A DNA stretch of 5,224 bases from a virus (taxonomy: Duplodnaviria; Heunggongvirae; Uroviricota; Caudoviricetes): IMG/VR virus record IMGVR_UViG_3300029476_000065. One strand, written 5' to 3'. Positions 4,432-4,678 of this stretch are shown here, piece by piece. How positions within the stretch are numbered: position 1 is the first letter of the stretch; each line of letters begins with the position of its first letter. Position numbers and translations under genes: made by a program. The notes beneath the pieces were generated by a model. That model was not told where the DNA came from, did not search any database, and saw only the letters and a program-made list of their open reading frames with translations.

Positions 4432-4507
4432 TGGTGCCGGTTAACGGACTCGAACCGCTGACATCCTGCTTACAAGGCAGGCACTCTACCAACTGAGCTA
4501 AACCGGC
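4432..4507 (-). tRNA. tRNA-Thr (anticodon UGU)
   Basis: Reverse complement GCCGGTTTAGCTCAGTTGGTAGAGTGCCTGCCTTGTAAGCAGGATGTCAGCGGTTCGAGTCCGTTAACCGGCACCA (76 nt). All four stems pair, anticodon loop CTTGTAA, T loop TTCGAGT, encoded CCA. Confidence 0.9.
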
Positions 4508-4511
4508 AATT

Positions 4512-4598
4512 TGGTGGGGAGTGATGGAGTCGAACCACCCGAGTCGCAATGACAGTAGATTTACAGTCTCCCCCGCTACCTCTACGGACTAACTCCCC
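4512..4598 (-). tRNA. tRNA-Tyr (anticodon GUA)-like type II gene with imperfect anticodon and D stems; possible pseudogene
   Basis: 87-nt reverse complement with acceptor GGGGAGT/ACTCCCC, T arm GGTGG-TTCGACT-CCATC, anticodon loop CTGTAAA, long variable arm, discriminator A and CCA. The anticodon stem has a G-A mismatch and the D stem needs a G-U pair and a 3-nt linker. Confidence 0.5.
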
Positions 4599-4603
4599 TA
4601 AAT

Positions 4604-4678
4604 TGGCGATGGTGGGTGGATTCGAACCACCGACCAGTTGGTTAACAGCCAACTGCTCTACCGCTGAGCTACACCATC
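4604..4678 (-). tRNA. tRNA-Asn (anticodon GUU)
   Basis: Reverse complement GATGGTGTAGCTCAGCGGTAGAGCAGTTGGCTGTTAACCAACTGGTCGGTGGTTCGAATCCACCCACCATCGCCA (75 nt). Perfect cloverleaf, anticodon loop CTGTTAA, encoded CCA. Acceptor stem differs from the host-type Asn tRNA as I recall it, consistent with an element-encoded copy. Confidence 0.9.

Follow-up and report, generated by a model that had tools for sequence, protein, structure and literature searches.

The window, by which we mean the whole 5,224-nt stretch of DNA analysed here, carries on its minus strand three genuine tRNA genes arranged head to tail, in the 5'->3' order Asn-Tyr-Thr:

4604..4678, minus strand: tRNA-Asn(GUU), 75 nt (ARAGORN; Rfam RF00005, 75.5 bits, E 8e-16)
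4599..4603, minus strand: spacer ATTTA, 5 nt, from Asn-CCA to Tyr
4512..4598, minus strand: tRNA-Tyr(GUA), 87 nt (ARAGORN; Rfam RF00005, 35.1 bits, E 1e-4)
4508..4511, minus strand: spacer AATT, 4 nt, from Tyr-CCA to Thr
4432..4507, minus strand: tRNA-Thr(UGU), 76 nt (ARAGORN; Rfam RF00005, 72.5 bits, E 5e-15)

All three genes passed the RF00005 gathering score of 29 bits; the lower score of the Tyr gene was expected, since class II tRNAs such as this one have a long variable arm. A first-pass annotation, made from the letters alone, had placed these genes at 4432-4678; the boundaries given by ARAGORN match it exactly, Rfam agrees, and the 4- and 5-nt spacers it described were read from the sequence as AATT and ATTTA. 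The 5-nt gap also occurs in about 50 related arrays, and AATT is conserved in related arrays. Direct reading of the sequence further showed that the CCA end is encoded in each of the three genes.

The array belongs to a long minus-strand block with the order conserved leader, Asn-Tyr-Thr, hairpins, Ser, tciA/tciB, Ile2 and orf6/orf5/lpa; other features of this block, and a hairpin upstream of it, are the following:

5137..5165, minus strand: intrinsic-terminator-like hairpin, GCCCATCTTCGGGTGGGC followed by a T run
4679..5136, minus strand: non-coding leader, 458 nt, directly upstream of Asn
4343..4430, minus strand: long hairpin with arms CACAACAGGTAAGGGTA and TACCCTTACCGTTGTG, beginning 1 nt after Thr-CCA (repeat families D2, D4, I2, I3)
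3891..3977, minus strand: tRNA-Ser(UGA), 454 nt downstream of Thr (ARAGORN)
3189-3644, minus strand: tciA (TerB family; open reading frame, D6 and plasmid annotations)
3025-3189, minus strand: tciB (DUF3927; open reading frame, D6 and plasmid annotations)
2830..2905, minus strand: tRNA gene of Ile2 type, anticodon CAU, downstream of tciA and tciB (ARAGORN; Rfam, 66.2 bits)

In total, five tRNA genes are set among protein-coding genes, and they include the Ile2-CAU and Ser-UGA genes that had been proposed earlier, present at 2830-2905 and 3891-3977. The tciA/tciB pair (3025..3644) sits between the Ser and Ile2 genes and shares their orientation. The top Rfam match of tRNA-Ser(UGA) was tRNA-Sec, with 43.5 bits, under that family's threshold of 47, and this gene is 98.9% identical to the tRNA-Ser of D6. 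The CAU gene, named trnI in the P1 record, is 90.8% identical to E. coli K-12 ileX, which identifies it as an Ile2-type gene. The hairpin at 4343..4430, with a T-arm-like interior, GGTTCGAATCC, belongs to a group of five in the window. We considered these hairpins as integron attC-like sites and rejected this idea, as their ends, inspected by eye, match the RYYYAAC/GTTRRRY cores poorly and no integron integrase is present.

The acceptor stems, T arms, anticodon loops and CCA ends are intact in the three genes of the array. The generally known identity elements of the corresponding synthetases are also present, namely the GUU anticodon and G73 for Asn; GUA, A73 and the long variable arm for Tyr; and G35 and U36 for Thr. 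The Asn gene also has C16, and its anticodon stem pair G31-C39 makes positions 36-41 read UAACCA; in the Thr gene, which has A73, G39 and U16, the same positions read UAAGCA. The earlier description of Asn and Thr as perfect cloverleafs was right for Asn but not for Thr, where a rare C25->U change produces a G10-U25 wobble. In the Tyr gene, a rare U28->G change found in 4 of 51 related arrays leaves a G28.A42 mismatch in the anticodon stem. The energy of the Tyr cloverleaf was -23.1 kcal/mol for the G28 allele of the window versus -27.8 for the common U28 allele, and the G28 cloverleaf lay about 6 kcal/mol above the minimum-energy fold; given the mismatch and this unfavourable fold, the Tyr copy of the window may work less well. 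Single-sequence thermodynamic folding, which did not recover the cloverleaf for Thr or for the Tyr allele of the window, was used only to compare the two Tyr alleles. Among 24 Thr alleles, 97.2% of the cells pair, 12 of the 21 pairs show compensatory changes, and none of 500 shuffles reached such a value; the Asn alleles likewise show compensatory changes, A31-U39/G31-C39 and others in the T stem. These patterns support the preservation of the cloverleaf by selection in the Thr and Asn alleles.

Sequence identity and gene order assign the window to the P1 phage-plasmid family of E. coli, as a D6-like member. It is 97.6% identical to D6 and about 91-92% identical to P1 and P7, with the gene order kept, and its backbone is of the D6 type, with lpa and pacA downstream, a Ser tRNA gene and no ban. 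The synteny of the P1 family (leader, Asn, (Tyr), Thr, hairpin, tciA/tciB and Ile2 on a single strand) was found here. P1, P7 and D6 carry a counterpart of the array with Asn and Thr tRNA genes. In P1, trnA (Asn) and trnT (Thr) of the ban operon, with trnI downstream (NC_005856), have the same position and orientation as in the window, and the P1 record shares the 458-nt leader, the downstream hairpin, tciA/tciB and the Ile2 gene. Two records contain the three-gene form: the E. coli plasmid pCDF6_3 (NZ_CP158428.1), 100% identical over the 247 nt and annotated as tRNA-Asn/Tyr/Thr, and the Escherichia phage vB_EcoM-Ro157c2YLVW, with a near-identical annotated Asn-Tyr-Thr array. Both have the same three genes, order and 5-nt and 4-nt gaps as the window, but within a P1-type backbone (dmt upstream; SPFH gene and ban downstream) instead of a D6-type one; the phage also differs in having the common U28 Tyr allele and another Thr anticodon stem. 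The array is therefore already annotated in RefSeq records; the gene call is correct but ordinary and adds nothing new.

The first-pass annotation had regarded these tRNA genes as of element type and, for Asn and Thr, as divergent from those of the host, and both the closeness to D6 and the comparison with K-12 sustained this view, the genes being element-borne and of the P1 family. Identity to the K-12 genes is 64.9% for Asn (asnT), 68.9% for Tyr (tyrU) and 78.9% for Thr (thrU), so that the case it had named as refuting, identity with a host operon, did not arise. When 5,426 E. coli genomes were searched, 264 records contained the full array; none of the chromosomal matches listed did so, these being partial and of <=80% identity. 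The low K-12 identities and this distribution across genomes led us to reject a copy of a host tRNA operon.

P1 and D6 have the arrangement Asn-CCA-AT-Thr, with a 2-nt gap and no Tyr gene, whereas the window reads Asn-CCA-ATTTA-Tyr-CCA-AATT-Thr; the Tyr insert corresponds to 94 nt between Asn and Thr. The flanking genes are 97.4% (Thr) and 89.5% (Asn) identical to those of P1/D6, and the Asn alleles differ, being A31-U39 and 76 nt long in P1/D6 versus G31-C39 and 75 nt in the window. In IMG/VR, the U39 Asn allele occurred 65 times in the arrangement Asn-2-Thr and never with Tyr, and the C39 allele 40 times in Asn-5-Tyr-4-Thr; among the E. coli plasmid matches, 264 of 812 records had the three-gene form. 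The Tyr insert is thus found in roughly one third of related elements, nearly always tied to a particular Asn allele. The closest tRNA-Tyr genes compared are those of rV5-like phages, with 93% identity and a likewise preceding tRNA and AATT, and those of T4-like phages, with 92%. On these similarities, the Tyr gene, an accessory insert, was most probably acquired from a virulent phage. Slot-wise swaps were seen in relatives, Asn with U39 or C39, Asn or a chimeric Arg-UCU, Tyr present or absent, and the positions of the cluster act as exchangeable slots in a phage-plasmid family that is widespread in E. coli, Salmonella and Klebsiella.

The leader upstream of Asn is near-invariant in the alignment of the window, D6, P1 and pCDF6_3, it is more structured than shuffled sequences (fold z = -4.0), and it probably belongs to the transcript of the array. 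The terminator-like hairpin upstream of the leader, 470 nt from the array, is conserved in the same four sequences and could limit read-through. It lies where the P1 record ends its "dicF-like region", a label whose only source is that record; we discarded a DicF identity, as no match to the DicF family was obtained in the P1, D6 and pCDF6_3 loci at gathering thresholds, nor in the window scanned at E<=1. Promoter-like or terminator-like sites were not found inside or directly beside the array, and there was no terminator-like site between Asn and Ser. A promoter for the array was not found within the window, where the leader strand has no sigma-70-like site; in D6 there is a single weak sigma-70-like site 1.2 kb upstream of the array, no more than chance predicts. 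The lack of such sites in the array and its surroundings is consistent with co-transcription, although it is no proof of it. In the P1 record the array is flanked by the C1-controlled ban promoter on one side and by ban on the other, and the C1 operator Op72 at this promoter is present in P1 and pCDF6_3, at a position that falls beyond the end of the window. The P1 C1-operator consensus, searched with <=3 mismatches, had no match in the 8.7-kb D6 locus comprising the array and its upstream region. As D6 is the closest relative, the timing of expression may differ from that of P1.

Taken as a whole, we consider it highly probable that these are genuine tRNA genes of a D6-like element which add decoding capacity during phage gene expression. 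From the arrangement described we infer that the array is expressed, processed, including from one precursor, and charged. Transcription would start at a promoter beyond the window and yield a single long precursor that includes the array; since P1 uses the C1-repressed ban promoter for this purpose, the tRNAs would be made upon induction or infection. Each tRNA would be cut by RNase P at its 5' end, leaving trailers of 4-5 nt after the encoded CCA that host 3' exonucleases would trim. Host synthetases would then charge Asn through G73 and the GUU anticodon, and Tyr through A73 and the long variable arm, and the mature tRNAs would supply extra decoding capacity while phage genes are expressed. 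This supply would match codons over-used by the element for ACA, read by the array, and for AUA and UCA, read by the neighbouring tRNAs. Codon supply explains little in the case of Tyr and of AAC; there, making good the loss of host tRNAs to stress or defence nucleases would be the likelier benefit.

Codon-usage compensation is the classic model for phage tRNAs, and in its pure form these genes would be kept only because the element over-uses their codons with respect to the host. We compared D6 with a K-12 sample composed of the 2.02-2.07 Mb region, which is AT-rich and biased if taken alone, and a second region added to it, and ranked the 61 codons by the D6/host ratio. Four codons agree with the model: ATA (12.6 per 1000 codons in D6 versus 4.7 in K-12; rank 3), TCA (13.6 versus 7.4; rank 5), ACA (15.5 versus 8.5, 1.8 fold; rank 6), which reaches 20.2 per 1000 in the late structural genes of D6, and to a moderate extent AAT (26.3 versus 18.7, 1.4 fold; rank 10). 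However, TAC, TAT and AAC are barely enriched (1.1-1.3 fold; ranks 15, 21 and 31), and the most enriched codons, AGG and AGA (ranks 1 and 2), have no matching tRNA in the window. The earlier claim that the set decodes only A/U-ending or rare codons is right in part, since AAC and UAC end in C and are common; the idea of codon supply agrees with ACA, AUA and UCA, to some extent with AAU and scarcely with the Tyr codons. Moreover, backbones that are almost the same occur with and without Tyr, so codon usage cannot decide its presence, and we hold the pure form of the model to be conceivable but doubtful. A different possibility, that the genes are decaying, non-functional tRNA-like remnants, would apply in particular to the Tyr copy of the window, whose U28->G change breaks an anticodon-stem pair; the rare C25->U of Thr and the tRNA-like remnants that adjoin the array, such as the one at 4343-4430, point in the same direction. 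One internal mismatch is nevertheless tolerated in many tRNAs, and the Rfam scores, the intact parts of the three genes, the compensatory evolution across the family and the retention of the array in hundreds of elements make decay very improbable.

The three tRNAs of the array coincide with known targets of two tRNA-cleaving defence systems of E. coli. The AriB nuclease of PARIS cleaves Lys(UUU), its prime target, Thr(UGU) and Asn(GUU), within U36-A-A-U39-C40-A41 between C40 and A41, with U39, A41 and U16 as recognition positions; in tRNA-Lys, a change of U39 abolishes cleavage and one of U16 impairs it (PMC12409363). The PtuAB nuclease of Retron-Eco7 depletes tRNA-Tyr, and phage tRNA-Tyr rescues (PMC11555353). 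The tRNAs could then serve mainly to replace, or act as decoys for, host tRNAs destroyed by immune nucleases, either because anticodon-stem changes would block cleavage or because the copies would simply outnumber the losses. Colicin E5, for its part, targets queuosine-containing tRNAs, a class that includes Tyr and Asn. We regard this as rather unlikely, and as unlikely its more specific form, in which the linked Asn(C39), Tyr and Thr(G39) would be a cassette built from virulent-phage tRNA genes that provides resistant or surplus copies against PARIS and Retron-Eco7. Several observations fit it. At positions 36-41, K-12 thrU reads TAATCA and asnT TAATCC, versus TAAGCA in the Thr and TAACCA in the Asn of the window, so that AriB positions are substituted in Thr (G39, with U16 retained) and in Asn (C39 and C16). 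The Thr hexamer is identical to that of the T5 Thr that aids escape from PARIS, and G39 is found in 25 of 25 Thr alleles of related elements. The D6 backbone exists with Tyr, in the window, and without it, in D6; since the element shows no enrichment of Tyr codons, the gain of this gene is not accounted for by codon supply.

On the other hand, escape from PARIS requires the tRNA-Lys of T5, which its Thr helps, and T4, despite having its own Thr(UGU), still needs T5 tRNA-Lys for rescue (PMC12409363). No tRNA-Lys was found in the window or in the related loci examined, so the array does not cover the full set of targets for escape. [quoted passage not shown] In the case of Retron-Eco7, the rescue of T5 relied on a very strong promoter (PMC11555353), and none was seen near the array. 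The literature search gave, in the library covered, nothing relevant on P1-family tRNAs with PARIS, retrons or codon usage. If the cassette were real, slot swapping among relatives would record an arms race with tRNA-targeting immunity. The population picture and the coincidence with these nuclease targets could matter for the question why temperate phages retain only a small number of tRNA genes.

With respect to known systems, the thrU-tyrU-glyT-thrT-tufB operon of E. coli resembles the array in that Thr(UGU) adjoins Tyr(GUA), CCA ends are encoded and the tRNAs are co-transcribed with a protein-coding gene, but it has another gene order, no Asn, and identities of 79% (Thr) and 69% (Tyr). Its spacers in K-12 are 8 nt for thrU-tyrU and 6 nt for glyT-thrT, and the statement that the array is far tighter than host operons was overstated. 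The tRNA genes of virulent coliphages (T5, T4-like and rV5-like) also lie head to tail a few nucleotides apart; these phages carry 5 to 25 tRNAs under strong promoters of their own, whereas the window belongs to a temperate phage-plasmid with five tRNAs and no promoter-like site found. With the T5 set directed against PARIS (Lys, Thr and Asn) and Retron-Eco7 (Tyr) the window shares three of the four isoacceptors, and its Asn also lacks U39. It differs in having no tRNA-Lys and in an identity of 61-65% (Asn, Thr) and 83.5% (Tyr) to the T5 genes, and any corresponding role of P1-family tRNAs is hypothetical. A further likeness is that T5 has "tRNA-like stable RNAs", structured non-tRNA RNAs interspersed among its tRNA genes, as in the window.

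Five tRNA genes, all on the minus strand, were predicted by ARAGORN in the window. Three of them fill exactly the interval in which the first-pass annotation had placed a tRNA trio, and the Rfam tRNA covariance model (threshold of 29 bits) concurred, with E-values of 1e-4 to 8e-16, far beyond chance:

4678-4604, minus strand, tRNA-Asn(GUU), ARAGORN; Rfam tRNA covariance model, 75.5 bits
4598-4512, minus strand, tRNA-Tyr(GUA), ARAGORN; Rfam tRNA covariance model, 35.1 bits
4507-4432, minus strand, tRNA-Thr(UGU), ARAGORN; Rfam tRNA covariance model, 72.5 bits

The lower Rfam score of tRNA-Tyr is what one expects of class II tRNAs, whose variable arm is long. 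The three genes encode the 3' CCA, and on the coding strand they are separated by the spacers ATTTA (Asn/Tyr) and AATT (Tyr/Thr). The other two genes are a CAU tRNA of the Ile2 type (2905-2830, minus) and a tRNA-Ser(UGA) (3891-3977, minus). The best Rfam score of the latter was obtained with the tRNA-Sec model, under the threshold of that family, and in the D6 record its amino acid was left unassigned by tRNAscan-SE. In phage Cyrano this tRNA-Ser gene lies 8 nt past Thr, forming an Asn-2-Thr-8-Ser array.

The interpretation of the trio as a tRNA cluster of a P1-family phage was right: over the 2.8 kb that surround the array, identity is 97.6% with Escherichia phage D6 and 91-92% with P7 and P1. 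This region also has matches in about 1,100 enterobacterial plasmids, nearly all of them non-mobilizable, and the window follows the D6 gene order (tRNAs, tciA/tciB, Ile2-type tRNA, orf6, orf5, lpa, pacA). The 247-nt array has a 100% identical copy on the E. coli plasmid pCDF6_3, annotated in RefSeq as tRNA-Asn, tRNA-Tyr and tRNA-Thr, and the annotation of the punavirus vB_EcoM-Ro157c2YLVW likewise lists these three tRNAs; the feature is therefore already known and annotated. The minus-strand ORFs at 1801-2376 (191 aa) and 1409-1801 (130 aa) correspond to the hypothetical proteins orf6 and orf5 of D6, which stand after the Ile2 tRNA where P1 has ban and dbn. Positions 810-850, inside the stretch homologous to D6 pacA, are masked (41 N). 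Beyond the window, the D6 genome (L011, 14325-15986) encodes a full-length glutaminyl-tRNA synthetase homologue, a further translation-related gene of this phage-plasmid lineage.

The array genes are not copies of host genes, a possibility ruled out by their low identity to K-12 asnT (64.9%), tyrU (68.9%) and thrU (78.9%) and by the absence of the array from E. coli chromosomes among the matches listed for complete E. coli genomes. The Ile2-type tRNA is the exception, being 90.8% identical to ileX. The spacing had been described as far tighter than in host operons, which was overstated, as gaps of 8 nt (thrU/tyrU) and 6 nt (glyT/thrT) occur in K-12. Judging from sequence comparison, the array genes appear to be under selection: when 24 distinct Thr alleles are compared, 97.2% of the cloverleaf cells pair, and 12 of the 21 pairs have changed on both sides, values that shuffles and slid structures came nowhere near. 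In the lineage of the window, derived changes introduced a G-U wobble in Thr (C25 to U) and, into the Tyr anticodon stem, a G.A mismatch (U28 to G, present in 4 of 51 arrays); each is rare, occurring in four related arrays and pCDF6_3. The computed energy of the Tyr cloverleaf is -23.1 kcal/mol for the window allele vs -27.8 for the common one. Because of the mismatch, and because the cloverleaf is no longer the minimum-energy fold, the cautious earlier label "Tyr-GUA-like" was apt for this copy.

Our data fit the co-transcription of the array within a long precursor. This is inferred from the P1 record, where ban and its C1-repressed promoter (operator Op72) flank the array; from the lack of a sigma-70-like site adjoining the array in the window and of a terminator-like site on the coding strand from Asn to Ser; and from a non-coding 458-nt leader upstream of tRNA-Asn (4679-5136, minus). 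This leader is near-invariant in the window, D6, P1 and pCDF6_3, its flanks differ among them, and it folds better than shuffles (z = -4.0). RNase P would cut the precursor at the 5' end of each tRNA, and the trailers of 4-5 nt would then be shortened to the encoded CCA by 3' exonucleases of the host, as in E. coli tRNA processing at large. A caveat is a strong intrinsic-terminator-like hairpin, GCCCATCTTCGGGTGGGC plus a T run (5165-5137, minus), 470 nt upstream of the array. It coincides with the end of a "dicF-like region" annotated in the P1 record; the DicF family was absent from the Rfam matches of the window and of the P1, D6 and pCDF6_3 loci. The upstream part of 5137-5224 (minus, cut by the window end) has a D6/window version unlike that of P1. 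As no match to the P1 C1 operator, with up to 3 mismatches allowed, was found in the 8.7-kb D6 locus around and upstream of the array, the promoter and its timing may not carry over to the D6-type backbone.

Five long hairpins, whose inverted-repeat arms are nearly the same in sequence (CACAAC(A)GGTAAGRGYA / TRCYCTTACCGTTGTG), occur in the non-coding stretches:

4958-4869, minus strand, long hairpin
4430-4343, minus strand, long hairpin
4207-4108, minus strand, long hairpin
3888-3783, minus strand, long hairpin
2645-2589, minus strand, long hairpin

Two copies begin 1-2 nt past the CCA of a tRNA. In the one directly after Thr, the arms are kept in relatives, with compensatory changes, whereas the interior falls into at least seven versions that are unrelated to one another, of which some contain a T-arm-like GGTTCGAATCC (related loci with this hairpin family are, e.g., L097, L032, L022, L023, L129, L044 and L024); the Thr-to-Ser distance in relatives ranges from 8 to 705 nt. 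Compared with shuffles, the hairpin-bearing regions have much more stable folds (z of -4.0 and -5.75), and Rfam gave no credible match for them, the overlapping matches being far sub-threshold microRNA models only. The hairpins could be sites at which RNase III processes the transcript, tRNA-like RNAs of the stable kind known from the T4 and T5 clusters, or borders at which the variable cargo recombines. Between tRNA-Ser and tciA, the stretch 3781-3661 (minus) resembles the prophage sRNA family STnc100 (39.4 bits vs a Rfam threshold of 47). Among the 5,426 E. coli genomes, 4,710 hold homologues of 80-87% identity, and an annotated dicB gene overlies one of the listed matches. A 3' motif related to that of this stretch, GGAGGCACC, is found at about 2495-2520.

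What might maintain these tRNAs was considered in terms of codon supply and of defence. Codon usage in all 118 annotated D6 genes (27,071 codons) was compared with that in three K-12 regions (28,173 codons).

Codon usage per 1000 in D6 and K-12, with rank among 61 codons by D6/K-12 ratio
ATA: D6 12.6, K-12 4.7, rank 3
TCA: D6 13.6, K-12 7.4, rank 5
ACA: D6 15.5 (20.2 in late structural genes), K-12 8.5, rank 6
AAT: D6 26.3, K-12 18.7, rank 10
TAC: D6 13.3, K-12 10.1, rank 15
TAT: D6 18.1, K-12 14.8, rank 21
AAC: D6 23.8, K-12 21.2, rank 31

The earlier codon rationale, that the tRNAs serve A/U-ending or rare codons, was thus only partly right: enrichment is strong for ATA, TCA and ACA, moderate for AAT and slight for TAC, TAT and AAC, and TAC and AAC are common codons ending in C. 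Given these ranks, codon supply accounts well for Ile2, Ser(UGA) and Thr(UGU), partly for Asn and poorly for Tyr, whose presence codon usage cannot decide since the gene comes and goes on near-identical backbones. AGG and AGA rank 1 and 2, without a matching tRNA in the window.

It seems rather unlikely that the array is kept as an answer to the tRNA-cleaving defences PARIS and Retron-Eco7, even though its three tRNAs are the non-Lys targets of these systems: AriB, the nuclease of PARIS, cuts the E. coli tRNAs Lys(UUU) and Thr(UGU) and, less strongly, Asn(GUU) (PMC12409363), and Retron-Eco7 PtuAB depletes tRNA-Tyr, infection being rescued by a phage tRNA-Tyr (PMC11555353). AriB cuts at U36-A-A-U39-C40|A41; tRNA-Lys is no longer cleaved when U39 is altered and is cleaved less well when U16 is, and T5 escapes through variant tRNAs for Lys, Thr and Asn (PMC12409363). 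At positions 36-41, K-12 thrU and asnT read TAATCA and TAATCC, the window Thr reads TAAGCA, as in T5 Thr, and the window Asn reads TAACCA and also has C16; G39 is present in 25 of 25 Thr alleles of relatives. Nevertheless, the array lacks tRNA-Lys, the main AriB target and one needed for escape, the common P1-type Asn carries the well-cleaved TAATCA, and the Retron-Eco7 rescue required a very strong promoter (PMC11555353). No link between P1-family tRNAs and either system was found in the literature searched.

The interest of the array arises mainly from this coincidence with defence-nuclease targets, as judged by sequence, and from the modular way in which the cluster evolved. Identical arrays are present on both P1-type and D6-type backbones, which implies that the array moves by recombination. 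A scan of IMG/VR and phage records for the two Asn 3' ends gathered 155 arrays. In 65 of them Thr comes 2 nt after the U39 Asn allele, which Tyr never follows, and in 40 the order is the C39 allele, Tyr, Thr; hence Tyr and the Asn allele travel together. In complete E. coli genomes the three-gene form accounted for 264 records out of 812 plasmid matches. The donor of the Tyr gene was likely a virulent phage, as suggested by its identity to the tRNA-Tyr of rV5-like (93%) and T4-like (92%) phages; in the rV5-like phage MiataMamis, tRNA-Tyr also comes after another tRNA and AATT. In 16 related elements (among them L014, L016, L021, L044, L045, L050, L078 and L083) a tRNA-Arg(UCU) takes the place of Asn in the first slot. 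It has exactly the acceptor stem, D stem and T arm of the Asn gene, combined with an Arg-type D loop (with A20) and anticodon arm that resemble those of Arg(UCU) from an rV5-like phage, which gives it the look of a mosaic that arose by recombination. In D6, AGA ranks second among the over-used codons.

Compared with P1 and D6, which carry Asn and Thr only, joined by the two-base spacer AT, the window has a 94-nt block (spacer, Tyr, spacer) between the two genes, and its Asn gene is of 75 instead of 76 nt, with G31-C39 in place of A31-U39 and a compensatory change in the T stem.
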